Below, one piece after another: positions 15,722-34,768 of a DNA stretch of 64,000 nucleotides; the stretch's first letter is position 1, and the number at the start of each line of letters is the position of its first letter. The notes beneath the pieces are model-generated. The model made no database searches. It was not told where the DNA came from and saw nothing but the letters and a program-made list of their open reading frames with translations. This DNA comes from Bacteroidia bacterium (GTDB lineage Bacteria > Bacteroidota > Bacteroidia > Flavobacteriales > Flavobacteriaceae). Made by a program: the position numbers and the translations under genes. Location: positions 54,124 through 118,123 of the forward strand of contig JAUIMB010000011.1 of NCBI GenBank assembly GCA_030432635.1, read 5' to 3'.

Positions 15722-17556
15722 TGGATTACATCAAGAAACTTTCACGGTTTATAATTCCGTATAAGAAGTATGCATTCCTGAATATCTTTTTCAATATTCT
15801 GTATGCGCTTTTTGGGACGTTATCGTTCGTTTCCTTGATGCCTATGCTTAAGGTATTACTGAAAACCGCTGAACCCATTTTAAAGAAGCCGTTGGCTTCA
15901 GATTATGATGGGTTTTTGGAATATGGTGACTACCTTGAAAACTATCTCAACTATTTTATCACACAGAAAATTGCTGAAGATGGCCAATACAGTGTCTTAA
16001 TTTTGATGATTTGTATCGTATTGGCTACGTTCCTTCTGAAAAATGCAGCAGGTTACTTTTCAAATTTCTTCTTAGCCTATTTAAGAAATGGAATTCTCAA
16101 GGATATTAGGAATGAGCTTTATGAAAAAACAGTAGAATTGCCTGTATCGTACTTCTCTGAAAAGCGAAAAGGTGACATTATTGCTCGTATTTCTGCAGAT
16201 GTCAATGAAATTCAAAATTCACTTCTTGCTATCCTAGAGTTGCTTGTACGAGAACCATTGACCATTATATTCACAATAATCGTAATGTTTAGCATCAGTT
16301 TGAAGCTTACGATTTTTGTATTTGTTTTTATTCCTATTTCTGGAATCATCATTTCTTGGGTTGGAAAGAGCTTGAAAAAGCATTCCAATCGTGTCCAGCA
16401 GGAAAATGGCGTATTCTTGTCGGTGTTGGATGAAACATTAAACGGATTGAAAGTCATCAAGAGCTTTAATTCCGAATCGCGTTTCATGTCAATATTCAAG
16501 AATTCAACATCACGACTATACAAGTACTCGAATGATTTGGCACATCGACAAAACCTAGCATCACCTACATCGGAGTTTTTGGGCATTGTTGTAATCGCTG
16601 TGATTTTGTTATATGGTGGACGTATGGTTTTGGTTGACAAAACCTTGACGCCTGATGAATTCATTACCTACATGGCGTTGGCATATAATATATTGACACC
16701 TGCCAAAGCGATTAGTAAAGCGAGTTATAAAGTAAAAGCTGGCAATGCTTCAGCAGATCGTGTCCTTGACATCTTAAATACAACGTCTAGTTTAAAAGAT
16801 GATGTCAATGCTAAAACCAAGGAAGATTTCAACACTGAGATTTCGCTGAGCAATGTGTCGTTTAAATATGAAGATGATTTGGTGCTCAAAAATTTCAGCA
16901 TCAAGGTACCCAAAGGGAAAAGTGTCGCATTGGTTGGACAATCAGGTAGCGGCAAATCAACAATTGCCAACTTGGTCACACGCTTTTATGACGTGACCGA
17001 AGGAACAATTTCGATAGATGGCACCAATATCAAAACCTTGACCAAAGCCTCCTTACGTGGTTTGATGGGATTGGTAACCCAAGACTCGATTCTGTTTAAT
17101 GATACGATCAGAAATAATATTTTGATTGGTAAGGAAGACGCTTCGGAAGAAGCTATTATTGAAGCACTTAAAATTGCCAATGCTTGGGAGTTTGTTAAAG
17201 ACCTTCCAAATGGAATTGACACGAATATTGGAGATGCTGGTGGAAAATTATCTGGTGGACAAAAACAACGTCTCAGTATTGCCCGAGCTGTTTTAAAGAA
17301 TCCTCCAATCATGATTTTGGACGAAGCGACCTCTGCATTGGATACCGAAAGCGAGCGTTTGGTGCAAGTGGCTCTCGAGAACATGATGAAAAACCGAACT
17401 TCAATTGTTATTGCGCATCGCTTGTCGACTATTCAAAACGCAGATGAAATTATCGTGATGCAAAAAGGTGAAATTGCTGAGCAAGGCACACACAATGAAC
17501 TCTTGGCAAAAAATGGTGTCTACAAAAAATTGGTGGACATGCAGAGCTTTGAGTAA
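15721..17556 (+). CDS. ABC exporter, permease plus ATPase (MsbA-like)
   Basis: TMD followed by GQSGSGKST, LSGGQKQR, ILDEATSALD and IAHRLST. Confidence 0.92.
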   Translation: MDYIKKLSRFIIPYKKYAFLNIFFNILYALFGTLSFVSLMPMLKVLLKTAEPILKKPLASDYDGFLEYGDYLENYLNYFITQKIAEDGQYSVLILMICIVLATFLLKNAAGYFSNFFLAYLRNGILKDIRNELYEKTVELPVSYFSEKRKGDIIARISADVNEIQNSLLAILELLVREPLTIIFTIIVMFSISLKLTIFVFVFIPISGIIISWVGKSLKKHSNRVQQENGVFLSVLDETLNGLKVIKSFNSESRFMSIFKNSTSRLYKYSNDLAHRQNLASPTSEFLGIVVIAVILLYGGRMVLVDKTLTPDEFITYMALAYNILTPAKAISKASYKVKAGNASADRVLDILNTTSSLKDDVNAKTKEDFNTEISLSNVSFKYEDDLVLKNFSIKVPKGKSVALVGQSGSGKSTIANLVTRFYDVTEGTISIDGTNIKTLTKASLRGLMGLVTQDSILFNDTIRNNILIGKEDASEEAIIEALKIANAWEFVKDLPNGIDTNIGDAGGKLSGGQKQRLSIARAVLKNPPIMILDEATSALDTESERLVQVALENMMKNRTSIVIAHRLSTIQNADEIIVMQKGEIAEQGTHNELLAKNGVYKKLVDMQSFE

Positions 17557-23700: not shown

Positions 23701-23877
23701 AATAAAGATGATATAAAAGATTGCTATAACCGAAAAGACGACTGCCTACCTATTGTTGAACCCGAATTAAGTCGAGTGATGGCCAAACCTGCTCATGATT
23801 TCATGCTTGCCATGCTCAAGCATCCTTATGTAGAAAAAGATATTGATGAATTAGGCAAGTTATTATCTGAAAATTAA
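20710..23877 (+). CDS. Large polytopic membrane protein with C-terminal patatin-like phospholipase domain
   Basis: More than 10 hydrophobic segments in aa 1-600; then YGGGMKA (Gly-rich loop), SGASGG (GxSxG) and NDGGIYENSG (DGG). Confidence 0.75.
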   Translation: MKGTYIGKLLGSFKKFNISTSLFSTFLLLTIAMGAIGNIFDVKNHLTHPQFTEHISKSWFLETTDKCDLFLYKLFFIIDFIWAPLLLWILFKIIKWKTKTVLKGLKWVPVLFAILAIASLVFDYIENIKYLTTYQYPKDIAILKIACYASAVFIFTVVCLLNFKTKWFIILRNFVRSSWISLLILFVLGMALPKVPQFNSVIVDLYYRPIQFSFVFLALFAPLYAIVLSHYPSYISLSALNQISVRHWRMTDKFWLFGTIWYKERPHKGKEDVYKSYQSVVGYLRRSLGILFYSAIFFLLAFTADTNFDCGLKFAPFTMVLIIFLLLFLNYHRNKYATWEKTNKPFLNILSQQEAMDIYKSDVSSKQTPTPDASLFSINKPIKAYVLWVSISVALLIWLFISLYMTNKDDPYSWFNVILSLSCLVAQSISYVYYRTYRSAFKYVFFDPNQKAIFYAFGIVGYDADRYQEYKSLITEVFKNYDFKNGSKLLRFFSKLRFFEFSFGSLSNHIVFLKRIIYLGFLNAIVLLVLNYFNLYTVALNSTLIILSYFFLFYGIFVIIIKHIIYYSKSEEVFARNNKIKFKNSMLAFGLMLFVLIGLARFNTETKSELYVLKQIDTSDEVPLRTFVEHLEYGNRFYIGCYGGGMKANAWTMTVLDSLNKGFNIMEKATCLSGASGGTIGLTNYTTIYSENNTEAKRSEIVRKIATEDILSIDLTHVLGRDLVGHLFIPRTICDLKGTDRSTAAMKKYAKLTNFSPNHSFETLTYRGYWKTMYEKKKHKLPILIANSTNIEGRQGMAVSIKTKDEQSRILYTGADDILELDNSKTLSYFNATSTTNRFPLISPAATIKGKGQYNDGGIYENSGLLSAYKLYQAIESINDTISAKNVFVNIVNDKNLFIKAYIQDQYSALKNDSCFGDNINESSEMSAILKSVSATEMFPSYIKEKLEYLSDYDKCDITFISIYLPHRFDLDDIKTLYKPEIVNAMCVNELDRIITKNKDDIKDCYNRKDDCLPIVEPELSRVMAKPAHDFMLAMLKHPYVEKDIDELGKLLSEN

Positions 23878-25038
23878 TTTGGAAACACGTCCTTGACCTG
23901 CCGCAAAAGCAACAGAATCATTTAAAAACCTCAGCGTATAAAAAGCCTCATCACTCAAATGTGACCAAGAATTACCCGAATCGGAACTGTAATCTATTCC
24001 TTTAAAACCAACGGTGACCAATTTCGAAGCATTACCATTAGGAACATACTGTACACAACTTCGATAGCCTGGAGCTTGACCATCGGCTACAACATGCCAA
24101 GTCTTTCCTCCATCGTTTGTTCTTATTTTATTGGCATTGTTACCTTCTGGTTTCGTATAGTCGCCTCCAATCGCAAAACCATGTGTTTCATCATAAAAAT
24201 CTAAAGAATACATACCTGTGGTTTCCAAACCTTGAATGATCGGAGTTTCATAAACTTCCCAAGAATTCCCTTTATCTGGTGAGTACAATATGCGACTTGC
24301 CTTTCCTCCTGTGGCTATCCAAGTTTTATCGCCTACCATGGCAATATTGGAGTCACTAGCCGCAAAGGCTGCTTCACCATCTTTAGCCAATGGCAAATTC
24401 TCACAAGGTAATTTTGACCAGGTCTTGCCTCCATCACGAGTAATCACAATACTTAAACAACCATCGGTTGGGTCACCAATGGCCAAACCCTCTTGGTCAT
24501 TCCAGAATTCCATGGCATCATAAAAGGCCTTAGGGTGATTTTCAATATAGACAACCTTGTTTTCTTCCAAATCTAAATCCAGTTTATAAATCAGAGCAGG
24601 ACTTCCAATACTAATTCCATAGGCTCGACGCTTATTAACGGACAGGGCTCTAAAATTCGGAGTAATGGAATCAAAGGCTAAACTTACTGGCAACACTGCG
24701 TCAAAATCATCAGATTCACTGAGATTTAATTGGTCAAAACCTTTAAAAGTATTACTGGGCACTATAGCACCAAACCTACCATCTGATGTTACAAAAGCAG
24801 CACCTTGATACGCTTCTACAACTTCAATCGCTCGAACATTCAATGTAGAGTCTTTAATAATGGTTTCAATTTCCATATACGGAATTGATTGATTGATTAG
24901 TTTTTCATTAGATGAATGTGTTCTATTTCGGATTATAAACAACAAACCGAAAAGCAAAAAAGGTCCAATAAATATGAATAAGGTTTTCCTCATACTATCA
25001 TGATAAATAGCCATTTCATAAGAGCTGAAAAGTATCAT
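23863..25038 (-). CDS. Ycf48/BNR (Asp-box) repeat protein; likely start 24993
   Basis: Repeated T.DGGKTW / S.DKGNSW / S.DSGNSW Asp-boxes; GLAIGDP. Confidence 0.8.
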   Translation of the reverse strand: MILFSSYEMAIYHDSMRKTLFIFIGPFLLFGLLFIIRNRTHSSNEKLINQSIPYMEIETIIKDSTLNVRAIEVVEAYQGAAFVTSDGRFGAIVPSNTFKGFDQLNLSESDDFDAVLPVSLAFDSITPNFRALSVNKRRAYGISIGSPALIYKLDLDLEENKVVYIENHPKAFYDAMEFWNDQEGLAIGDPTDGCLSIVITRDGGKTWSKLPCENLPLAKDGEAAFAASDSNIAMVGDKTWIATGGKASRILYSPDKGNSWEVYETPIIQGLETTGMYSLDFYDETHGFAIGGDYTKPEGNNANKIRTNDGGKTWHVVADGQAPGYRSCVQYVPNGNASKLVTVGFKGIDYSSDSGNSWSHLSDEAFYTLRFLNDSVAFAAGQGRVSKLIFR

Positions 25039-25119: not shown

Positions 25120-27882
25120 CTAATTTTTAATAATTCGAAACGTTTTATTCTTATTGACTGTAATCAAATAAATACCATTCGCATAATCTGAAATATTTAT
25201 GTCTACTCTGCCAACTGACCTAAAATTGTTTTGAAAAAGCAGCTGACCTTGCACATTATAAACCAAAACAGAATCGATGTTACTAAATGAACTTTCAATA
25301 ACTAGAATACCGTTTGTTGGATTGGGATACAATTTCAAACTATCTCCAAACACATAATCTTCAACAGAAAGTGTTTCATTATTGATACCAAAAGTAGGAG
25401 CTTGTATAACAAAATCCCCTGTTCCATTAGGGTTTCTTGCATATCCCATATCAGTAACTTGAGCACCAAAAGTAATATCTTCTATAACTGTTCCATTAGT
25501 ATAAGATAAGATAGCGCTTTCACCACCTGCCGAGAATTTTACATCTGCATGTAAACCATCTTGGTCTAGATCTTCATCACACCATACTATCAAGTATTCG
25601 CCTGGCGCAATCGTAATTCCAGAAGGGAAAGGCCAAACCAATAAATCTGTAGGATCATCAGATAAATATAGGTTATCTAAGCTTAAGGTCTCATCACTAT
25701 TATTATACAATTCTAACCAATCTTCATATTCTCCATCTTGATCGGTTACAGTAGTATCATTTGAAGCCATTAATTCATTAATTACTAAATCTCCTGGTGT
25801 TATGGTTGGATATGAATTATCAACGGATTCATTATTTTCTGCAAAAGTTGGTTCTTGAATTACAAAATCTCCTGTTCCATTGGGATTTCTTGCATAACCC
25901 ATATCATCTGTTTGCGAGCCAAAGGTTATATTTTCTATAATAGTTCCATCTGCATAAGATAAAATCGCACTTTCACCACCTGAAGAAAATTTCAAATCGG
26001 CATGTAACCCTGTTTGGTCTAAATCTTTATCACACCAAACTATTAAATATTCGTCTGGCGCAATTGTAATTCCTGCAGGAAACTGCCAGGCTAATAAATC
26101 TGTAGGATCATCGGATAAATACAAATTATCTAAACTTATGGTTTCAGAAGAGTTATTATATAATTCTAACCAATCATCATACTCACCATCTTGATCGGCA
26201 ACTGTTGTGACATTAGATGCCATTAATTCATTTATAACCAAATCACCAATAGGAATAGTTAAATAAGTCGCGTTTATGGTATAAAACTCATGCTCTGCTC
26301 GTGCTGGAGAAAAAGCACCTATATTGTTATTTTCAGCATATATATAGTATTGTGTATATTCTTCAGTAATTGCTAACTCTACACCATATACACCATCATT
26401 TGCGCTTCCATCATTATGATTACCATCATCATACATAAGAGTTTTGGTAAAAGCTTCATGCTGATCGTTTCTGTAACCTAAAAATACGGTATCAGAATTA
26501 GTATTGATGACGTTACTAGTGATAGTTATGGTTGTATCTATCTCTGGACTTGAATTAGATTCTGACACATTACTTATTTCAGGTTGAGTTACTGTAAAAT
26601 CTGATAAAGCAGAAAGATAATTCCCTCTAGCATTCATTAAATTAGTTAAGCCTGAAGCTGTATTCATACCTAGACTATAATCTGTATTTATGTTTCCAAT
26701 GAATTGAGCGTATGAATAAAATTTATTAACATCTGCTTGAACCGCAGCATCAATGATACTTTGAAAGTCATTTGCTAAAGTCAGATAGTTAGAGTTTGTA
26801 ATCTGCTCAGTTAGAATTGTCTTGTAGTGTGCTAAATACATTTTCTTATACCTAGGAACTGCTAAAAGTTTAGACATTAATGGAAAATTATTATCTGTAT
26901 CATGTAACAAGTGATCCATTTGTGCTTTTTGAGTCGTGGTGTTTAAATTTCCTCCTCCTGGTCCTCCTCCGCTTGCGCCAGTCATACTGAAAGTTCCAAA
27001 CGACATATTTAAATCCCAAACAACTGGACTAAAACGTCCATTATTACCTTTATACAAATAATAATTTTGTTTAAATTCTCCGATATAACTATCCAGATTA
27101 ACTAAAACATTATCAAAAGCTAACATCCATAAAGCGCGATCTACGTCTAATACAGTTTCAATATTTGCGATGTCAGTATTTAAAATATTTGTTAGCTCAA
27201 TCAAATCGTCCCAATGTGCATCTGCAACAGTAGGATCTGTTTCATCATCAGATTTAATTTCATAGGCATCTTCATAGCTTGCGCTATTTGTTCCTAAATA
27301 GGCAAGATTCGGATAATCATTTGATCCAGGTCCTGCTCCATCTGGAGGACTACAACTAAAAAAAGCATTATCATTTGATCCAAAATGGTTATTGACAAAC
27401 TTTTTAGAAATAGATTCTACATTAGTATATAGCCCTATTAATGTACCATTAACATACACATTAGCATAATTAGCTAATGGCGCATGCATGTAGTTTCTAG
27501 CAATGTCATAAGCAACAGTCTCTCTAACAAATGAAGGGTCGAATATGACATTTGCTAATTTCAAATCTGTTGTACCTTGATAGTTTTGATCAACGTAGGT
27601 ATCTAACTCTATATGAAATGGATTTTTAGTCTGATTGGGATTGTAAGAGCTGTTTCCCTTATACTTCACACCTACTTGATTAAAAACGGTTCCGTTAATG
27701 GTTACAGAAGTTGCTTCGGTGTAATTGTTGTCTCCAGCTTTTTCTGCATCTAATAGTGCATCCCAGTTACTTTCTGCAAATACAATTTCTATGGTTTGAA
27801 TCGTATTAGTATCATACAACTCTTGTGCATAAATACTACTAGCAAAGAGTAATACTAATAAAAATGTAATTGTTTTTTTCAT
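25120..27882 (-). CDS. CotH-family kinase with two lamin-tail domains and a T9SS type A sorting domain
   Basis: GVKYKGNSSY, NLDSY, NYYLY and WDLNMSFG CotH motifs; two VINELMASN...DWLELYN LTDs; C-terminal LYPNPTNG...KTFRIIKN. Confidence 0.88.
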   Translation of the reverse strand: MKKTITFLLVLLFASSIYAQELYDTNTIQTIEIVFAESNWDALLDAEKAGDNNYTEATSVTINGTVFNQVGVKYKGNSSYNPNQTKNPFHIELDTYVDQNYQGTTDLKLANVIFDPSFVRETVAYDIARNYMHAPLANYANVYVNGTLIGLYTNVESISKKFVNNHFGSNDNAFFSCSPPDGAGPGSNDYPNLAYLGTNSASYEDAYEIKSDDETDPTVADAHWDDLIELTNILNTDIANIETVLDVDRALWMLAFDNVLVNLDSYIGEFKQNYYLYKGNNGRFSPVVWDLNMSFGTFSMTGASGGGPGGGNLNTTTQKAQMDHLLHDTDNNFPLMSKLLAVPRYKKMYLAHYKTILTEQITNSNYLTLANDFQSIIDAAVQADVNKFYSYAQFIGNINTDYSLGMNTASGLTNLMNARGNYLSALSDFTVTQPEISNVSESNSSPEIDTTITITSNVINTNSDTVFLGYRNDQHEAFTKTLMYDDGNHNDGSANDGVYGVELAITEEYTQYYIYAENNNIGAFSPARAEHEFYTINATYLTIPIGDLVINELMASNVTTVADQDGEYDDWLELYNNSSETISLDNLYLSDDPTDLLAWQFPAGITIAPDEYLIVWCDKDLDQTGLHADLKFSSGGESAILSYADGTIIENITFGSQTDDMGYARNPNGTGDFVIQEPTFAENNESVDNSYPTITPGDLVINELMASNDTTVTDQDGEYEDWLELYNNSDETLSLDNLYLSDDPTDLLVWPFPSGITIAPGEYLIVWCDEDLDQDGLHADVKFSAGGESAILSYTNGTVIEDITFGAQVTDMGYARNPNGTGDFVIQAPTFGINNETLSVEDYVFGDSLKLYPNPTNGILVIESSFSNIDSVLVYNVQGQLLFQNNFRSVGRVDINISDYANGIYLITVNKNKTFRIIKN
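25390..26270 (-). repeat. Tandem duplication of the lamin-tail domain (453-bp period)
   Basis: cctgttccatt occurs at 25418 and 25871; the two protein repeats are near-identical. Confidence 0.85.
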
Positions 27883-27889
27883 TTGTGTG

Positions 27890-28567
27890 TTAATTTAAAT
27901 GTTCTTTTTGTAACGTTTTTACATCTGCAATTAATTGTTGTACAGACGTTTTGTTTAATCCGTTATAAATTCCTCTAATGCGTCTTTGTTTATCAATAAG
28001 GACGAAATTTTCAGTATGGAGAAAGTCGTCATCTGTTTTATTTAATCCTAAATCTTCTTCAGCAAAATAGGCTTCACGACCTAAGTCATAAATTTGCTTT
28101 CTGTCACCAGTTACCAAATGCCATTTTTCATTAATAACACCTTTAGTTTCTGCATAACGTTTTAATGTTGAGACAGAATCTGTTTCTGGAGTTACTGAAT
28201 GTGATAATAGCAAAATGTCATCATCATCTATAAATTCGTCTTGTAACACCATCATGTTTGCTGTCATTTTCGGGCAAATACCAGGACAGGTTGTAAAGAA
28301 AAAATCAGCAATATAGATTTTATCTTTAAAGGTTTTCTCGGTGACTTCCTCACCTAATTGATTTACTAAGCTAAACTTTGGGATTTTGTGAATGATATCT
28401 GCTTCTTCTCCATTTGGATCTAACCAATGAGGTGTAAATGTTGCCTCCTTATAAAATGGCAGTGCTGAAACTCTACTCGTTTTTTCAGAAGTTGAAGACT
28501 CTTTACATCCTGCAAAGCATAACATCAAAAAAGAAACCATTATATATTTAATATTGCACATTCTCAT
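27890..28567 (-). CDS. Sco1/SenC-family copper chaperone lipoprotein (ORF track start 28594)
   Basis: FFTTCPGICP (CxxxC), conserved His in FLHTENF, lipobox FAGC. Confidence 0.9.
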   Translation of the reverse strand: MRMCNIKYIMVSFLMLCFAGCKESSTSEKTSRVSALPFYKEATFTPHWLDPNGEEADIIHKIPKFSLVNQLGEEVTEKTFKDKIYIADFFFTTCPGICPKMTANMMVLQDEFIDDDDILLLSHSVTPETDSVSTLKRYAETKGVINEKWHLVTGDRKQIYDLGREAYFAEEDLGLNKTDDDFLHTENFVLIDKQRRIRGIYNGLNKTSVQQLIADVKTLQKEHLN

Positions 28568-29150
28568 CTTCCAATTGATAACATAAATTCGCACGTTTTA
28601 ATCCGAAAATCCGTCCGTTTTTAGCCTCGTAATTATTATAAATTTTTCCATTTTCACGCCATGCCTTTTGCATGCCTTCTTCTTTTCCGTTCACAATTGT
28701 CATTTCTTTAAACTTAGCTCCAGATTTGTACCATTGTTTCTGTATTCCGTTTACAATGCCATTAGTATAGTTGGCCTCAGAGCGTAAATTGCCGTTTTTC
28801 CACCATGATTTTGCTTTTCCATGTTGTAATCCGTTAGCATAATAAGCCTCAAAGCTTAAGCTTCCATCTGGGAACCATTTTTGATATATTCCATGACGCT
28901 TACCATTAACAAATTGAATAGATTCCACTTTAAAATTTTCACTATAGTATCTAACTGAAGTACCATTAAAGGGCTGATTTTGATAATACATCAATCCTAA
29001 ATTAGGTTTCAACTCTAATTCAACCTTATTAATTACCATCTCATTTTCAGTAGTATTAACAACTTCAGTATAAGCCATAAATTTCTGTTCTTCTTTTTGA
29101 CAAGAAGACATAACTAACAGACTTATGATAAAAGTTGTTTTACTGAATAT
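28548..29150 (-). CDS. MORN-variant repeat (YwqK-like) lipoprotein; first in-frame ATG at 29111, a complete signal needs a start at 29150
   Basis: Repeats NGKRHG.YQKW..DG, NGLQHG..KSW.KNG, NGKEEG.QKAW.ENG; upstream in-frame IFSKTTFIISLLVMSSC. Confidence 0.8.
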   Translation of the reverse strand: MFSKTTFIISLLVMSSCQKEEQKFMAYTEVVNTTENEMVINKVELELKPNLGLMYYQNQPFNGTSVRYYSENFKVESIQFVNGKRHGIYQKWFPDGSLSFEAYYANGLQHGKAKSWWKNGNLRSEANYTNGIVNGIQKQWYKSGAKFKEMTIVNGKEEGMQKAWRENGKIYNNYEAKNGRIFGLKRANLCYQLEDENVQY

Positions 29151-30237
29151 TGCTTGGAGTGCCTTGATAATCGCCTGGGAATAAAATATAAAACTGATTT
29201 AAGTATAGATCATTTTGAATATGATAATGGTATTCACCATCAGGGTTATGAGGTGTTGGGCCAAAATGACCTCCTGAAGCGTCTAAATCTGTTGGATATT
29301 CATTTGAAGGATAATCTCTACGTCCATAAAGAAAGAATCCATCTGCGATGATTCCAATTAATTCTTGATCGTCGTCTGACCAAGCTTTAGTTTCTAAATG
29401 ATAATGATAACTTTGCGGTCCTGTATGAGCAGCTGTGTAATCTAAAGAACCAACTGCGCCATCCAACGGAATATTTGGACCTTCTTCATCATTATAAATC
29501 ATAGAGCCAGACACTGCAATTCCTATAGGTCCTAATCCTGTCGACGTAGAAGTTGCAGCCAATTGTGGATTTGCTGATACTGTTAATGTATAACTACCAT
29601 TAAAATCATCAATATTACCTGGAGCCATCATTTCATAACTTGTTACAGTTGGCTCAACAAATAATGGATGATTTTCTGCTGCAGCTGGAGTAACCAAAGT
29701 ATTTCCCATTGGATCGATTGCTGTACGCTCTGTTGTGTTAGACCAGTATGGAGACGTATGATTTGGTAATCCGTTACTTTCGATAACCACATTCGAACCA
29801 CTTAACATAATGTCTGTATTATCGGCATCAAACTCTGCAAAAGCAAGATGTAATGAAGTTGTTGTTGAAGCCGTTGAAAAACTAAAAGATGCTGAACTGC
29901 TTCCACCATTTCCATCAGAAGCAACAACAGTTCCGGAATAATTTGTTGAGGGCGTCAAAGCCGTTACATCTAACGTTAAAACCGATAAAGAGGAAGCTAA
30001 TTCAGAGCCTTGTAACGTCACTGTATAAGTCACTGTATCTCCATCAGCATCTGTAGCTTGCGTCCAATTAATACTAGCTGTGGTCTCAGTAATTGAAGTC
30101 ACACTTGCTGTAAAACCAGAAGGTGCTTGATTTGTAGTTTGGCCATTATCCTCATTTCCAGAATCATCACTACTACAAGCAAAAAAAGCTATAGCTACTA
30201 ATAAAAATGTCGTTAGAATTTTTAAATAATTTTTCAT
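29140..30237 (-). CDS. YHYH-domain lipoprotein with an N-terminal FN3-like domain
   Basis: Lipobox FFAC-SSDD; FN3-like segment; HTGPQSYHYHL, ADGFFLYG and GEYHYH motifs. Confidence 0.88.
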   Translation of the reverse strand: MKNYLKILTTFLLVAIAFFACSSDDSGNEDNGQTTNQAPSGFTASVTSITETTASINWTQATDADGDTVTYTVTLQGSELASSLSVLTLDVTALTPSTNYSGTVVASDGNGGSSSASFSFSTASTTTSLHLAFAEFDADNTDIMLSGSNVVIESNGLPNHTSPYWSNTTERTAIDPMGNTLVTPAAAENHPLFVEPTVTSYEMMAPGNIDDFNGSYTLTVSANPQLAATSTSTGLGPIGIAVSGSMIYNDEEGPNIPLDGAVGSLDYTAAHTGPQSYHYHLETKAWSDDDQELIGIIADGFFLYGRRDYPSNEYPTDLDASGGHFGPTPHNPDGEYHYHIQNDLYLNQFYILFPGDYQGTPSNIQ

Positions 30238-30270
30238 TGATTTATGTTTGATTTGTTAATCTTATGACTT

Positions 30271-30298
30271 TAGATGTCCTTTTAAAAAATAACTTGCG
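30271..30298 (-). promoter_or_regulatory. Putative ECF promoter CGCAAGTT-N14-CATCTA (YHYH-MORN-Sco-CotH operon)
   Basis: One of four copies with identical spacing; lies just downstream of an intrinsic terminator. Confidence 0.75.
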
Positions 30299-30317
30299 CT
30301 TAGTAATACTTTATTTC

Positions 30318-30348
30318 AAAAAAAAGCTTCGCAATTTCTCACGAAGCT
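30318..30348 (-). terminator. Intrinsic terminator after EF-hand gene 1
   Basis: AGCTTCG-loop-CGAAGCT-T8 on the minus strand. Confidence 0.8.
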
Positions 30349-30384
30349 CTTTCAACAAAAAACTATTAACCAATCAAATAATTT

Positions 30385-30918
30385 TTATTTATCTTTTTTT
30401 CTACGTTTAGACATTCCTTTTTTATTATAAAAAATTTGCAATTCTTTTAAATCAAGTTCACTGTCTTGATTTGTATCAATTTCATGAAAATTTTTAATTA
30501 AGTCTCGCTTATCCTTTGCTGCAACTTCTAATTCATTTAAAGTACCATCTTTATTATCATCAACTTCTTTTAAAATTTTTTCAGCTGATATTTTCTTTGG
30601 TTTTTTTCTATCGTTTAGTGATGCTTTTAATTCTTCTAAGTCTATTAGCTCATCGCTATTGGTGTCTATTGCGTCAAAATCTTGAGCAATTTTACCTCTT
30701 TCATCGTTTGAAGCTTCTTCTTTATCGATAACACCATCACCATTTGTATCTAGCTTTGAAAATATTTCGGTAGCATCTGGCTTTTTATTTCTTTGTTGAT
30801 CTCCGCCTTGTCCTCTTCCTACTCTTTGTCCACCACCACGATATCCCTGAGCAGACAAACTAATAGAAAACAGTAGTACAACTACAGTAAAAGTCAATTT
30901 CATGTTATTATTTCTCAT
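30385..30918 (-). CDS. Exported EF-hand protein (4 EF-hands)
   Basis: Signal peptide; loops DTNGDGVIDKEE, DTNSDELIDLEE, DDNKDGTLNELE, DTNQDSELDLKE. Confidence 0.9.
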   Translation of the reverse strand: MRNNNMKLTFTVVVLLFSISLSAQGYRGGGQRVGRGQGGDQQRNKKPDATEIFSKLDTNGDGVIDKEEASNDERGKIAQDFDAIDTNSDELIDLEELKASLNDRKKPKKISAEKILKEVDDNKDGTLNELEVAAKDKRDLIKNFHEIDTNQDSELDLKELQIFYNKKGMSKRRKKDK

Positions 30919-30954
30919 ATTATTGTTTTAATTATTCTTTCTTTTTTTTATTAA

Positions 30955-30982
30955 TAGGAAACTTAAGACCATTTTACTTGCT
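30955..30982 (-). promoter_or_regulatory. Degenerate ECF promoter (AGCAAGTA-N14-TTCCTA)
   Basis: CAAGT and CTA at the same register as in the four exact copies; upstream of EF-hand gene 1. Confidence 0.4.
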
Positions 30983-31084
30983 AATCGTAATTTATTTGAT
31001 ATCAACGATGGTTTTTAATATTTCTGAATATTCTCATGATATTTTTAGATTTAAGTGGCTTAGATAATTTCTAACTCTCAAACT

Positions 31085-31113
31085 AAAAAAGCTTCGCAAT
31101 CGCTCACGAAGCT
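31085..31113 (-). terminator. Intrinsic terminator after EF-hand gene 2
   Basis: AGCTTCG-loop-CGAAGCT followed by a T-tract on the minus strand. Confidence 0.8.
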
Positions 31114-31186
31114 TTTCCTACTAACAATAATTAACCAATCAAAATCACTAATTCTTGGACTAACTCAAATTCTTGTTTTCTTAGGT

Positions 31187-31474
31187 CTACTCATTACGTT
31201 CTTTTCTTTTCGGCTTTGGTGCTTTTTTTAATTCTTCTTCAGAAATAAAACCATCTTCATCTGTATCTATTTTAGTAAATTCATCTTTTAACGGTCCTTT
31301 AACTTCATCTTTAGAAAGCTTACCATCTTCATTGGCATCCATTTCCTTTAAAAGTTGTTCAAATGTTGGTGGTTTTTTTCGTTCCTTACCTTGAGGTTGT
31401 CCAAATGAACTATTTGACATAAACAATGCTATTCCAAATACGATAACTACGGTTTTTAATGTGCTACTTTTCAT
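31187..31474 (-). CDS. Exported EF-hand protein (2 EF-hands); ORF track start 31594 is probably too long
   Basis: Signal MKSSTLKTVVIVFGIALF; loops DANEDGKLSKDE and DTDEDGFISEEE; the promoter at 31502-31529 lies inside the extended ORF. Confidence 0.88.
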   Translation of the reverse strand: MKSSTLKTVVIVFGIALFMSNSSFGQPQGKERKKPPTFEQLLKEMDANEDGKLSKDEVKGPLKDEFTKIDTDEDGFISEEELKKAPKPKRKERNE

Positions 31475-31501
31475 AATTAAATTTTTATTATTACATAGGT
31501 T

Positions 31502-31529
31502 TAGATGTAGAAGGCGCTGATAACTTGTG
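31502..31529 (-). promoter_or_regulatory. Putative ECF promoter CACAAGTT-N14-CATCTA
   Basis: Exact motif and spacing, 28 nt upstream of ATG 31474. Confidence 0.75.
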
Positions 31530-31601
31530 CTTTGTTTTGTTAAATAAAACACAAAAAAAAGACCTTCAACAAAACTGAAAGCCTTTATAATCAATTAACA
31601 A

Positions 31602-32105
31602 TTAATCACGTCTAGGTGGATGCCTACGACCATCTTTACCTTGAGGTGGTGGAGGTCTGTTTCCTTGATCTCCCTGACGCAATGCATCCATAAGTATAGT
31701 TTTAAATTTTTCTTTTTGCTTATCATTTGCAATGCCTTGTATCGCTCTAAAATGATAAAATATTTCTTTTTCTTTTTCTTTTTCTTTTTCACAAATTAAT
31801 GATGTCAAAGAATCTATAACGGATTCATTTACAGACTTATCAAACAACGTAGGAAACAAATCATCTTTTAAACTTCTAATCTCATCTGATAAACGCATCA
31901 TAGTTTTATGGTGTTTTTCACTACTAGCATTAAACTGTTCCAACTGCGCTGTATCAAATCCAAGTTCTTTCACGATAAAATCTCTATTTCTATGTGGTTC
32001 TCTTATCTTATTATCGTTTCCGCCTTTCAGGTAGTTGACTAGAAAAAACCCATTGACTATAATAAGAAAAATAAGCAAAACGTATAAAATGGTATTCCTC
32101 TTCAT
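31602..32105 (-). CDS. Spy/CpxP-like (periplasmic heavy-metal-sensor type) protein
   Basis: N-terminal TM, KELGFDTAQLEQF and final QKEKFK helices, His residues (KHHK, FYHF). Confidence 0.7.
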   Translation of the reverse strand: MKRNTILYVLLIFLIIVNGFFLVNYLKGGNDNKIREPHRNRDFIVKELGFDTAQLEQFNASSEKHHKTMMRLSDEIRSLKDDLFPTLFDKSVNESVIDSLTSLICEKEKEKEKEIFYHFRAIQGIANDKQKEKFKTILMDALRQGDQGNRPPPPQGKDGRRHPPRRD

Positions 32106-32108
32106 GAT

Positions 32109-32420
32109 TTAATTAAATATAGTGGTTTCAGTAGTTGTAGATAAGCCATAAGATTCAGCAAATTGGTTTAAATTCTCATTATAAGTTGATTCTTTAATCT
32201 TGGTAAAAGCAAATACATTTAAAATGATAACGCAAGCTAATGTCGCCAATTGCAATTGAGGCGTAAACCAAGACCAAAGTTTTTGTTTTTCTTCCTTTTT
32301 AACAAATAAACGATCTAAGGTTTTATCTTTAAAAAAAGGAGATACTTTCACTTCTTCGATATGATTAACACTATCAAAAACTGCATCTATCTTATCTTGT
32401 ATGTTCTTATTTGTTTTCAT
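32109..32420 (-). CDS. Probable anti-sigma factor (single TM)
   Basis: VKVSPFFKDKTL motif and TM LQLATLACVIILNVFAF; directly after the ECF sigma gene. Confidence 0.65.
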   Translation of the reverse strand: MKTNKNIQDKIDAVFDSVNHIEEVKVSPFFKDKTLDRLFVKKEEKQKLWSWFTPQLQLATLACVIILNVFAFTKIKESTYNENLNQFAESYGLSTTTETTIFN

Positions 32421-32431
32421 TGTTATTTATT

Positions 32432-32459
32432 TAGATGTTTTTTCTTGAAAAAACTTGTA
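32432..32459 (-). promoter_or_regulatory. Putative ECF promoter TACAAGTT-N14-CATCTA
   Basis: Fills the 39-bp gap between the sigma stop codon and the anti-sigma ATG. Confidence 0.75.
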
Positions 32460-33038
32460 CTACTGTTCATTTTTATAAAAATTTCCTAAAGCCTTTTGTA
32501 AATTTTTCTTTGCCCTAAACATTAATGATTCAACCGATGACAAACTCTTTTCGGTGATATCACTAACTTCTTGATAGCTCTTTCCATCAACTTTGTGTAA
32601 TGTAAATACAAGTCGTTGCGCTTCAGGCAAACCATTGATTGCAAAAAAAAGAGTGTCGCTTTTTTCTTTATTTTCTAGAATAATTCCAGGATGGTTCATT
32701 TCGGTGAAATAATTAGTTTTATCAATTTCAAACCCATCTCCAGTTAATGATTGTAAAAAGGCAAAACGCTTTTTAGTGTTACGCTTACGAATAAATTCCA
32801 AACATTTATTAGTCGCAATTCTATATATCCATGTAGAGAGTTTAGATTGGCCCTTAAACTTTGAAATGGAATTAAAGACTTCAACAAAAACCTCTTGTGC
32901 TATATCTTCGGCATCTTCTTTGTTTGGCACGAAAGACAAGCAGGTTCCATATACTTTATGCTGAAAATCATCAAGCAGTTTTGCATAAGCAATTCTACTC
33001 TTGTTTCTCAACTCTTTTATAAATTCGGCTTCCGTCAA
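32460..33038 (-). CDS. ECF sigma-70 factor (TTG start)
   Basis: DAEDIAQEVFVEVF, STWIYRIATNKCL and LPEAQRLVF...SYQEVS...SVESLMFRAKKNL. Confidence 0.92.
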   Translation of the reverse strand: MTEAEFIKELRNKSRIAYAKLLDDFQHKVYGTCLSFVPNKEDAEDIAQEVFVEVFNSISKFKGQSKLSTWIYRIATNKCLEFIRKRNTKKRFAFLQSLTGDGFEIDKTNYFTEMNHPGIILENKEKSDTLFFAINGLPEAQRLVFTLHKVDGKSYQEVSDITEKSLSSVESLMFRAKKNLQKALGNFYKNEQ

Positions 33039-33069
33039 AAATCTAGTTAAATTTTACGATGTACAAATT

Positions 33070-33097
33070 TAGATGCGCTTCAGAATAAAAACTTGCG
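33070..33097 (-). promoter_or_regulatory. Putative autoregulatory ECF promoter CGCAAGTT-N14-CATCTA
   Basis: Exact motif 32 nt upstream of the sigma start. Confidence 0.78.
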
Positions 33098-33156
33098 TTT
33101 TTAATAATCCAAAAAAACAACAGTAGAAATACACACTTAGTAATGCTATGCTAATT

Positions 33157-33759
33157 TTAAATAAATTTGGTGAAACATCTCTTACCTAATAAGACTATAG
33201 GAATCAGCAATAGACTCCACAAATAACTCTTATTAAAACCTTTTGACCGTCTTTCAACCATCGCATCATTTTCAAGGTCAACTGACATTTCATAAGCATT
33301 GTTTTGATTTAAAATCACCTTGCTTGTGGTCCCATTTAAAAAGAGCGAGAAAATCGTTTGATGTTGTCCATTTTCAGAAAACGCCTTGATACTGACGTCC
33401 ATAGTATCAAATTCATTGGGTAGTGTACTTATCACAAACTTCAAATCGGTTTGGTGGCTACCCAATTTTATTCCGCCTTCCAAAAGTTTTATGTCTCTAC
33501 CATTGATACTGAGTTCAAAATTTTCCTTGATATAATTTACGGCTAATTTCTTATATTCTTTATCAAACATGGCTTCTAAATCCTTTTGAGGATATTGCTT
33601 TTTAAGCGCCTTATGTAAGCCGTCTTGGCTTAAATTGATGGTTAGCACGCTCATATGCTCCTTCACTTCTAGATAGTAGAGAGCCGATAAAGGGTTATGA
33701 GCTTCCACTATGTTCAATGAACCAATGAAAACCAAAATCAGGACGAAGAGTTGTCTCAT
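33157..33759 (-). CDS. Exported protein with N-terminal His and a C-terminal TM anchor (DUF6702-like); ORF track start 33795
   Basis: Signal MRQLFV...VEA then mature HNPLS; C-terminal hydrophobic YLWSLLLIPIVLL. Confidence 0.55.
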   Translation of the reverse strand: MRQLFVLILVFIGSLNIVEAHNPLSALYYLEVKEHMSVLTINLSQDGLHKALKKQYPQKDLEAMFDKEYKKLAVNYIKENFELSINGRDIKLLEGGIKLGSHQTDLKFVISTLPNEFDTMDVSIKAFSENGQHQTIFSLFLNGTTSKVILNQNNAYEMSVDLENDAMVERRSKGFNKSYLWSLLLIPIVLLGKRCFTKFI

Positions 33760-33760
33760 A

Positions 33761-34768
33761 TCATTGAAAGGCAAAACTATTGACGGCTGCCACACCTTTT
33801 AAGCATTTTGGAACATTAGGTGCTTCGGTAGTGCTTGCCACATAGTGGTAGATACCATCGGGAAATTCTGATGTGATTGCTTCAATACCTCCACATTCAT
33901 CCAAACCTTCTGGTTCATTTTCGTAGGCATAAATTGGAAATCCATCTTTCGCAAAGCCTATGAGTTTACGACCTGAAACCTGATTGACCAACGTACAGGA
34001 TACATCGTCAATAGTATTGGATTCCAATACCTTATTCATAACTTCCGACACGAAATGCAGATGATAATATCCTGCTGGATCATGATGACCACCACAAGGG
34101 TCAATTGCTGGAATATTTCCTACACCAAGCACTGGTCCGTTCACTACTGAAGGTGGATCTCCATTAATAGGCACACCATCTGTAGAAAGACCAATAAGCT
34201 CAACAGTATCTATATTGTTATTGCTAGTAGCCAATTTTGGCACTGCAGGTATCAAGAAAGTCAATTGTATATTATTATCAGGAACGGCTTCCAAACAAAA
34301 AGAAAAACCGCCTGGATTTGGTGGCCCAGACAAGTCATCGATATATATTTCTCCAGTATTTCCAATAATATCATAACCATCAGCTTCCATAGCATTAAAT
34401 AAAGTGGCCTTTAAAACCTGAAAACCAGGATTCGTCGCACCATCATATATACCCAATCCACCAATATCATTTATGGTTTCAGGGCAAAAAGGACCGCTTT
34501 CCAATGGGTTACTTGAAAAAACCAATCGATAGCACTCGCCTTCCGTTCCATCCTCAAAATCACAATCCACTTTATTATAACTCACTAAAGATGTAGCATT
34601 GAAAAATGCCTCCTGAATCACCTCTTCATTGGTATCAGGAATGTTAGCATTTCCATCGTCATCATTTTCACAAGCTGAAACAACAAGCATTAAAGCCAGT
34701 AATATGACACCATATTTACTGAGAGAGCTTTGAGTCTTCGTGTATATGTTCTTCCAATTCATTTTCAT
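33761..34768 (-). CDS. Second YHYH-domain lipoprotein
   Basis: Lipobox VSAC-ENDDD; DGVPING, DPCGGHHDPAGYYHLH, GFAKDGFPIY, LDECGG and GIYHY motifs. Confidence 0.82.
   Translation of the reverse strand: MKMNWKNIYTKTQSSLSKYGVILLALMLVVSACENDDDGNANIPDTNEEVIQEAFFNATSLVSYNKVDCDFEDGTEGECYRLVFSSNPLESGPFCPETINDIGGLGIYDGATNPGFQVLKATLFNAMEADGYDIIGNTGEIYIDDLSGPPNPGGFSFCLEAVPDNNIQLTFLIPAVPKLATSNNNIDTVELIGLSTDGVPINGDPPSVVNGPVLGVGNIPAIDPCGGHHDPAGYYHLHFVSEVMNKVLESNTIDDVSCTLVNQVSGRKLIGFAKDGFPIYAYENEPEGLDECGGIEAITSEFPDGIYHYVASTTEAPNVPKCLKGVAAVNSFAFQ

Follow-up and report, generated by a model that had tools for sequence, protein, structure and literature searches.

A sigma factor cluster with YHYH, MORN and Sco genes in Psychroserpens: a candidate CnrYXH-like envelope metal regulon

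A row of eleven genes in a Psychroserpens genome (Flavobacteriaceae, 3.5 Mb) raises the question of what could bring together an extracytoplasmic function (ECF) sigma factor, two YHYH proteins, two EF-hand proteins, a Sco protein, a MORN-repeat protein and a predicted CotH kinase, and whether their genes form a single system. The window (the whole stretch of 64,000 nucleotides analysed, from contig JAUIMB010000011.1 of assembly GCA_030432635.1) contains the set at positions 25120-34768 of the minus strand; at the YHYH anchor gene the nearest named relative is P. mesophilus, with 88% identity. An initial annotation of this DNA had described eleven consecutive minus-strand genes and taken them for a co-occurring, co-regulated set with a dedicated ECF triad. 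The eleven open reading frames (ORFs) are present between those limits with the same coordinates, all on the minus strand, and the idea of a co-regulated set is borne out by a promoter-like motif confined to the cluster and by the conservation of both motif and gene order in other genera. As far as sequence can tell, the row is not accidental: its arrangement exceeds chance, since the four copies of the motif are the only ones in the genome and the neighbourhood recurs across genera. We propose, with a probability of about 0.55, that the cluster is a self-contained envelope metal regulon under a CnrYXH-like ECF sigma factor, in which the Sco protein serves a metal centre of the YHYH protein.

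The genes and promoter-like motifs of the cluster, from its upstream to its downstream end, are the following:
33761..34768, minus strand: YHYH335, Cys-rich YHYH lipoprotein of a second YHYH subfamily (Pfam YHYH, E 7e-20)
33157..33759, minus strand: N-His protein, exported, with a C-terminal membrane anchor, DUF6702-like (cleavage ...VEA/HNPL; the mature N-terminus is His)
33070..33095, minus strand: promoter-like motif P1, 31 nt upstream of the sigma start codon
32460..33038, minus strand: ECF sigma factor (Pfam Sigma70_r2 and r4_2; TIGR02937 sigma70-ECF, E 1.6e-29)
32432..32457, minus strand: promoter-like motif P2, 11 nt upstream of the anti-sigma start codon
32109..32420, minus strand: putative single-pass anti-sigma factor, 103 aa (position and architecture)
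31602..32105, minus strand: Spy/CnrX-like periplasmic protein, 167 aa, with an N-terminal membrane anchor, candidate sensor (orthologue profile against PDB)
31502..31527, minus strand: promoter-like motif P3, 27 nt upstream of the two-loop EF-hand gene
31187..31474, minus strand: exported EF-hand protein with two loops, 95 aa (Pfam EF-hand families; both loops fit the 12-residue pattern)
30385..30918, minus strand: exported EF-hand protein with four loops, 177 aa (Pfam)
30271..30296, minus strand: promoter-like motif P4, 33 nt upstream of fn3-YHYH
29140..30237, minus strand: fn3-YHYH lipoprotein, here called core YHYH (Pfam fn3 and YHYH)
28548..29150, minus strand: MORN_2-repeat protein (ATG-called ORF 28548-29111; Pfam MORN_2)
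27890..28561, minus strand: Sco lipoprotein of a dedicated subfamily (ORF 27890-28594; Pfam SCO1/SenC, E 2e-25, 89.5 bits, cut-off 22.8)
25120..27882, minus strand: CotH domain, choice-of-anchor X, two lamin-tail domains (LTD) and a type IX secretion system (T9SS) sorting domain (Pfam CotH, E 3e-47; NCBIfam)

The case for one regulon starts from the motif. The pattern CAAGTT-N14-CATCTA occurs exactly four times in the 3.5-Mb genome, always within the cluster and on the strand of the genes, and the four copies precede the sigma gene, the anti-sigma gene, the two-loop EF-hand gene and the fn3-YHYH-MORN-Sco-CotH operon; the reversed pattern, searched as a control, gave 1 + 1 sites genome-wide. 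These near-identical sites share the extended consensus C-R-CAAGTTTT-N12-R-CATCTAAA. In 15 related loci all exact copies (56 of 56) are placed 4-120 nt upstream of the same gene families, namely YHYH (14), anti-sigma (13), small EF-hand (13), sigma (9), large EF-hand (3), long CotH (3) and YHYH335-type (1), and relatives have the motif at the position matching P1 in 9 instances, P2 in 13, P3 in 13 and P4 in 14. When the 83 distinct instances are aligned, conservation extends to positions outside the search pattern: position -2 is C and position -1 a purine, a run of T follows CAAGTT, and CATCTA has a purine in front of it and AA behind. Allowing one mismatch added 20 further sites in the genome, about the number expected by chance, and none of them carries the extended consensus before an exported protein; hence the regulon appears confined to the cluster locus. 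The motif would be the sigma factor's own promoter. It can be traced only among loci with a sigma factor of at least about 60% identity, and inspection by eye of the units of Saprospiraceae and Balneolaceae found no shared promoter motif upstream of their sigma genes. The one other copy within the window, at 17015-17040 of the minus strand, has one mismatch and lacks the extended consensus; it is probably a chance match.

Downstream of P4 the YHYH, MORN, Sco and CotH genes are separated by a 28-nt gap, an overlap and a 7-nt gap in turn, and because of this close spacing they probably form one transcript. The small EF-hand gene is probably transcribed alone, as a GC-rich hairpin and then a T-run come immediately behind it (about 31088-31117), and the four-loop EF-hand gene would therefore need a promoter of its own.

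The second line of evidence is the conservation of the neighbourhood. In a sample of 80 other genomes of the family, 21 have a homologue of the YHYH domain, and of the 20 loci examined around these genes 19-20 keep the order YHYH, MORN, Sco. When species-representative genomes were searched more widely, 584 relatives were found, and neighbours were counted in the 52 of 80 loci with at least 4 kb on both sides. In these well-flanked loci YHYH, MORN and Sco are adjacent in 50 cases; by family, the adjacent genes are Sco (50), MORN (50), an ECF sigma factor with 33% identity or more (25), the small EF-hand (19), a detectable Spy-like protein (15), the CotH kinase domain (10), YHYH335 (6) and the N-His protein (5). 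The initial annotation had proposed a check for Sco, MORN, CotH and EF-hand genes beside YHYH elsewhere; across genera Sco and MORN do accompany it, whereas CotH (10/52) and the small EF-hand (19/52) are found in a minority of loci.

A compact unit of sigma factor, two proteins of about 100 and then about 160 aa, YHYH, MORN and Sco is visible in the gene maps of Saprospiraceae (Flavilitoribacter, Portibacter, Lewinella), Flammeovirgaceae, Owenweeksia and Balneolaceae, the last of which belong to another phylum by NCBI placement. As this unit recurs in other families, in other orders and in one other phylum, the conserved core consists of six genes: sigma, anti-sigma, Spy/CnrX-like sensor, YHYH, MORN and Sco. 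In Psychroserpens the core is split by the EF-hand genes and extended by CotH and the YHYH335/N-His pair. The EF-hand proteins, CotH, and YHYH335 with N-His are lineage-specific add-ons, so that of the eleven genes once read as one machine the six of the core stand together and the others do not belong to every version. No other family recurs beside the core in the related loci.

In relatives, lipoproteins of about 370 aa combine a His-rich tract (HSHEEHSH...) with a full-length canonical YHYH domain (E 1e-52) and, at the C-terminus, two EF-hands, for instance at L057:8816-9925 on the plus strand (L-numbers designate loci of relatives), and also in L056, L073, L095, L107, L132, L043 and L052, some of them with their own copy of the motif. 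YHYH and EF-hand domains are fused in one protein in at least ten loci, which ties YHYH to EF-hand proteins independently of gene order. Di-haem CCP/MauG peroxidases, sulfatases and short CotH lipoproteins, each of the latter with a 250-aa membrane protein, are occasional add-ons in relatives; in other genera a CCP/MauG-type peroxidase lies inside or beside the regulon at L037:11557-13038, with an exact motif, and at L054:10632-13354, with a sulfatase.

Which known system does the cluster resemble? The sigma factor is of the ECF type, with regions 2 and 4 only in about 190 aa, and reaches 102.7 bits with TIGR02937 (cut-off 42.9). The following 103-aa protein, which the initial annotation had labelled an anti-sigma factor, keeps its position, size and single-pass topology across orders in the alignment; since neither Pfam nor PDB gave a match, we infer its role as a putative anti-sigma factor from position and the single membrane helix. 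The label Spy/CpxP-like given to the 167-aa protein finds no Pfam hit behind it, but a profile of 24 orthologues matched Spy (E 7e-5), NccX (E 1.2e-3) and CnrX (E 5e-3) in PDB. These matches are weak but full length, that to NccX spanning residues 21-147 with the membrane helix included, and a Saprospiraceae orthologue gives a weak hit to PF13801 Metal_resist. The family has a near-invariant His65, an invariant Asn18 in the membrane helix and both LTXXQ-like segments. This protein is the candidate periplasmic sensor, most likely of a metal ion. In the membrane helices of the putative anti-sigma factor and the Spy/CnrX-like protein one Asn each is invariant across orders (N68 and N18, respectively), which suggests that the two helices are in contact within the membrane.

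The comparison is with CnrYXH/NccYXH, the nickel- and cobalt-sensing ECF system of Cupriavidus metallidurans, from which the list of CnrX ligands was also taken (PMC6851896). Like it, the cluster would be composed of three parts, an ECF sigma factor, an anti-sigma factor of about 100 aa that crosses the membrane once and whose cytoplasmic domain is short, and a periplasmic protein with the Spy/CnrX fold, about 150 aa long and anchored in the membrane, and would be autoregulated from its own promoters. It differs in that the sigma gene comes first, no similarity to CnrY is detectable in the anti-sigma factor, only one of the five CnrX ligand positions is conserved and a near-invariant His of its own is present instead, and no resistance-nodulation-division (RND) pump or exporter such as CnrCBA or CnrT is encoded, only exported binding proteins and lipoproteins. 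With Spy, CpxP and ZraP the 167-aa protein shares its best profile match, which is Spy, and both LTXXQ-like segments; unlike those soluble chaperones, induced by Cpx, Bae or Zra, it is membrane-anchored and located in a sigma/anti-sigma operon, as CnrX is.

The output half of the system has no characterised counterpart. In agreement with the initial annotation, which knew of no functional description of the gene set, none was found in the searchable literature; no paper combines YHYH with copper biology or with flavobacteria, and a paper on the F. psychrophilum transcriptome contains nothing on this gene set. The protein identities are clear in most cases: Pfam and NCBIfam agree with the labels CotH-LTD-LTD-T9SS, Sco, MORN, FN3-YHYH, EF-hand (twice), ECF sigma and YHYH that had been read from the sequence.

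For the Sco protein a function in the assembly of cytochrome oxidase was rejected. The genome has five Sco-family genes, and the cox-linked one is a different gene, on contig C15, where its neighbours are CyoE, two COX3 genes and DUF420; none of 100 YHYH loci has cox genes nearby. Because the Sco of the cox cluster lies on another contig, the Sco of this cluster is a dedicated paralogue. It has an intact CPGIC at residue 103 and the distal His193, and ahead of the thioredoxin domain it carries an N-terminal motif, LP[YF]Y.EA.F.P.W, which 67 of 91 orthologues share. Two other paralogues were examined, the cox-linked Sco and one on contig C40, and both lack the motif. The C40 gene (L135:5033-5743) is the closest paralogue, with 52% identity, and is flanked by feoB and by the gene of an M1 peptidase exported by the T9SS; genes of M1 peptidases are reported to lie frequently beside those of DUF6702 proteins (PMC12537917). 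The arrangement recalls the delivery of copper by Sco1/SenC, with PCuAC, to the CuA site, in that a thioredoxin-fold Sco with CxxxC, distal His and a lipid anchor is encoded beside its presumed client. It differs in the neighbours, which are YHYH and a MORN lipoprotein, in the lack of PCuAC and in the N-terminal subfamily motif.

The presumed client is core YHYH. Its domain contains two LD..GH...YHYH motifs and has no Cys beyond that of the lipobox. In the alignment D266, H271, H278, H280, D299 and D319 are invariant across both YHYH subfamilies and H324, H337 and H339 nearly so, and the invariant residues include a set of three His plus one Asp. YHYH335, which pairs with the N-His protein in L040, L044, L045, L057, L059, L061, L073 and L107, has the equivalents of H324 and H339 replaced, and is thus without two near-invariant His of the second motif. 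Scores against PF14240 are 43.4 bits for core YHYH and 72.3 bits for YHYH335 (cut-off 25). As the core copy covers only part of the Pfam model, it is, on this comparison, a divergent subfamily. The AlphaFold2 (AF2) model of core YHYH has a mean predicted local distance difference test (pLDDT) of 88 and a predicted template modelling (pTM) score of 0.86, and Foldseek found no fold neighbour for it in PDB, the best hit having E 0.87 and TM 0.11 or less. The modelled fold may therefore be new, not seen in solved structures. A search with a single sequence reaches about 530 clusters of the family at 50% identity. To our knowledge YHYH (PF14240), which occurs in bacteria, phages and algae, has no tested function. 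The N-Zinclopedia preprint (October 2026), which calls the family uncharacterised, includes a YHYH protein among its novel-fold candidates, with a predicted three-His site. YHYH was also predicted to be a Zn-dependent hydrolase with a three-His-plus-Asp Zn site, on the basis of fusions to phage tail and lectin domains (PMC7824862).

The MORN protein is the one deviation from the claim that all products other than the sigma factor carry export or membrane signals. In this genome its ORF from ATG begins MSSC..., without a signal peptide, the only ATG, GTG or TTG start being three codons before the Cys, and a lipoprotein signal with its lipobox Cys behind a start codon is not found; orthologues have normal, complete lipoprotein signals with start codons. 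A signal-like stretch (...KTTFIISLLVMSSC) is present in an open frame at 29109-29150 of the minus strand, which overlaps the end of the YHYH gene and contains no ATG, GTG or TTG. Either translation starts here at a rare ATA or ATT codon or the protein is made without a signal peptide in this strain.

In the N-His protein, H22, the first mature residue, H103 and H134 are invariant in 56 homologues, so that the earlier description as an exported protein with an N-terminal His stands, whereas its score with DUF6702 (PF20420) is 19.5-20.1 bits, below the cut-off of 24; among 120 homologues PF20420 is found in about 10, and one bears the name DUF6702 family protein. The His that follows signal cleavage is placed on a beta-sandwich fold in the AF2 model (pLDDT 92), whose best PDB matches are Cu-bound Ang-1 (9gce, E 5.5e-6) and then ZrgA and PA4063. 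DUF6702 was shown experimentally to bind Ni, Co and Cu tightly in vitro (PMC12537917). With the Ang-1 "anglerase" of that work, ZrgA of Vibrio cholerae and PA4063 of Pseudomonas aeruginosa, all periplasmic metal binders, the N-His protein shares the modelled fold, a size of about 200 aa, an invariant N-terminal His and two more invariant His. It differs in scoring below the Pfam cut-off, in its C-terminal membrane anchor and in its partner, a Cys-rich YHYH lipoprotein in place of a HupE/UreJ permease or a Zur-regulated ABC importer.

Both EF-hand proteins match several Pfam EF-hand models above their cut-offs, with two and four 12-residue loops of the DxDxDG type that end in Glu; the annotated form of the two-loop protein on record has 95 aa. 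Orthologues of the four-loop gene have an exact motif in L043, L056, L073 and L107.

The CotH domain scores 162 bits and aligns with B. cereus CotH (5jd9, E 2e-5). Its D264 and D290 correspond in this alignment to an Asp pair of B. cereus with the same 23-residue spacing as B. subtilis D228 and D251, from which spacing the B. subtilis numbering was transferred; the protein is a predicted kinase. Mutation of the Asp in B. subtilis CotH abolishes kinase activity (PMC7821199). The T9SS sorting domain is recognized by PF18962 and TIGR04183 above their cut-offs (residues 851-920). The gene starts 7 nt after Sco, its orthologues in L056, L057 and L132 each have a motif copy to themselves, and it follows the triad directly in a Lewinella locus. 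As in the Bacillus spore-coat protein (5jd9; PMC7821199), the CotH domain lies above the Pfam cut-off and both catalytic-aligned Asp are kept; in contrast to it, this CotH is not in a spore former, is exported by the T9SS, is fused to two lamin-tail domains and would be under ECF control. Relatives have a short CotH lipoprotein of about 475 aa, whose orthologue in L048 matches Pfam CotH with E 2.5e-72. Its regular downstream neighbour is a 250-aa membrane protein without a Pfam family, as at L056:5918-7339 and L056:7437-8198 on the plus strand; the same pair is found in L057, L073, L095 and L107.

Two neighbours were considered as members of the regulon and rejected, RsmB and the gene directly below the cluster:
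23863..25038, minus strand: BNR/Ycf48-like protein, downstream neighbour (Pfam PSII_BNR)
Both show synteny at the family level only and have no motif. The BNR/Ycf48-like gene directly follows Sco in L037, L043, L049-L052, L054, L058, L063 and others, is conserved within Flavobacteriaceae and is absent outside the family; here and in a few relatives the long CotH gene is inserted between Sco and it.

How could these components work together? In the model, a periplasmic signal, most likely a metal ion, would be sensed by the Spy/CnrX-like protein, which would pass it to the anti-sigma factor, possibly through the membrane helices, with release of the sigma factor. The sigma factor would then transcribe from four promoters its own gene, the anti-sigma/sensor pair, the small EF-hand gene and the fn3-YHYH-MORN-Sco-CotH operon. 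The dedicated Sco would deliver copper to the three-His-plus-Asp centre of YHYH or maintain it there, with the MORN lipoprotein as an adaptor and with metal buffering, acquisition or enzyme maturation as the possible outcome, and the EF-hand proteins, the N-His metal binder with the second YHYH and the T9SS-exported CotH would be lineage additions to the same regulon. We infer the supply of copper to YHYH by Sco from two facts: (i) every output protein with a recognizable feature is a metal or calcium binder, and (ii) the gene constantly next to YHYH encodes a Sco of the copper-chaperone type, distinct from the cox-linked copy. A metal as the signal, copper as the metal, and the part given here to YHYH, are to be read in the same conditional sense.

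Several observations weigh against this proposal. On the sensing side, (i) of the CnrX ligands H42, H46, E63, H119 and M123 only the position of H119 is conserved in the 167-aa family, and (ii) the profile of the 103-aa protein found neither CnrY nor any other anti-sigma factor in PDB, nor does the protein belong to a Pfam family. On the side of regulation, (iii) the co-regulation is read from sequence, (iv) the YHYH335/N-His pair has no motif upstream in this genome and the four-loop EF-hand gene only a decayed copy, (v) about half of the YHYH-MORN-Sco loci have neither an adjacent sigma factor nor the motif, and (vi) the loci of the wider scan were gathered through one YHYH subfamily, from related genomes that are not independent samples. 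As to the metal, (vii) what has been published for YHYH is the prediction of a Zn site (PMC7824862), (viii) the proteins that resemble the N-His protein in structure deal with Zn, Ni or Cu, and (ix) the cluster has no gene for a transporter or efflux pump and none recurs in the 100 related loci.

The Zn prediction opens a different view of the output half, in which the system would remodel the envelope: YHYH would hydrolyse peptidoglycan or a surface polysaccharide as a Zn-dependent enzyme, MORN_2 would restrain or position it, by analogy with YwqK-type immunity proteins, and Sco would be a thiol-disulfide oxidoreductase or a redox guard. The three-His-plus-Asp Zn site and hydrolase role predicted in PMC7824862, the three-His site predicted in N-Zinclopedia and the invariance of the same His triad and Asp in the YHYH of the cluster agree with it, as do the fn3 domain fused to YHYH in this genome and the sulfatase and di-haem peroxidase genes added in relatives. 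However, an oxidoreductase would have no Cys to act on in core YHYH, and in 50 of 52 loci the gene beside it encodes a dedicated Sco with intact CxxxC and His. The remaining members of the regulon (EF-hand proteins, the N-His binder, His-rich tracts) are metal binders and not wall enzymes, and Foldseek against PDB found no fold similarity to any solved hydrolase. We consider this explanation, although it is the main rival, unlikely.

It could also be asked whether there is a single system at all, since the ECF triad with the EF-hand gene, the YHYH-MORN-Sco group, CotH, and the YHYH/N-His pair might be independent modules held in place by family synteny in the way of RsmB and BNR, which prove that plain synteny exists in the region. 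Half of the YHYH-MORN-Sco loci without the triad, the presence of CotH, EF-hand and the N-His pair each in a minority of loci, and the YHYH335/N-His pair without a motif here would be expected from it. It is made improbable by the motif, which within this genome is limited to the cluster and stands before members of each module, by the recurrence of the six-gene unit in other orders and another phylum amid different surrounding synteny, by the fusion of YHYH and EF-hand in at least ten loci and by the CotH gene that follows the triad in Lewinella. If instead calcium were at the centre, the secreted CotH kinase would phosphorylate the EF-hand or His-rich proteins in the manner of Fam20C and build or harden a surface layer that contains calcium, perhaps by biomineralization, with YHYH and Sco as auxiliaries. 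EF-hand genes do carry the motif in 16 instances, CotH keeps both catalytic-aligned Asp and is exported by the T9SS, and the short CotH lipoproteins of relatives match CotH strongly. Yet CotH is found in about 10 and EF-hand in about 19 of the 52 loci, and both are absent from the compact six-gene units outside Flavobacteriaceae; missing from most loci and from these units, they cannot be the centre of the system. No Ser-rich repeat protein resembling a substrate is encoded in the cluster either, and we regard a calcium-centred matrix as very improbable.

The proposal of a CnrYXH-like metal regulon with a Sco that serves YHYH can be carried further, tentatively and at the risk of being wrong. 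YHYH might be an envelope metalloenzyme or metal-relay protein with a novel fold, whose three-His-plus-Asp centre is possibly paired with a second three-His motif; it might be loaded with copper by Sco via MORN, switched on by the CnrX-like sensor and accompanied, in some lineages, by a CotH that modifies EF-hand or His-rich proteins. It might then represent a new class of copper proteins with its own maturation pathway in Bacteroidota and Balneolota, related to domains of phage tails and diatoms. We hold this extended form to be rather doubtful.

For the YHYH family the locus offers a genetic handle, namely a dedicated sigma factor, four promoters, a Sco paralogue and a fixed MORN partner, by which it becomes testable in culturable marine flavobacteria. 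For the predicted secreted CotH kinase, it provides a non-spore setting in which to find substrates. If the proposal is true, a CnrX-type sensing module would drive binding proteins instead of efflux pumps, and if Sco loads YHYH, the role of Sco would extend beyond cytochrome oxidase to a second class of clients.

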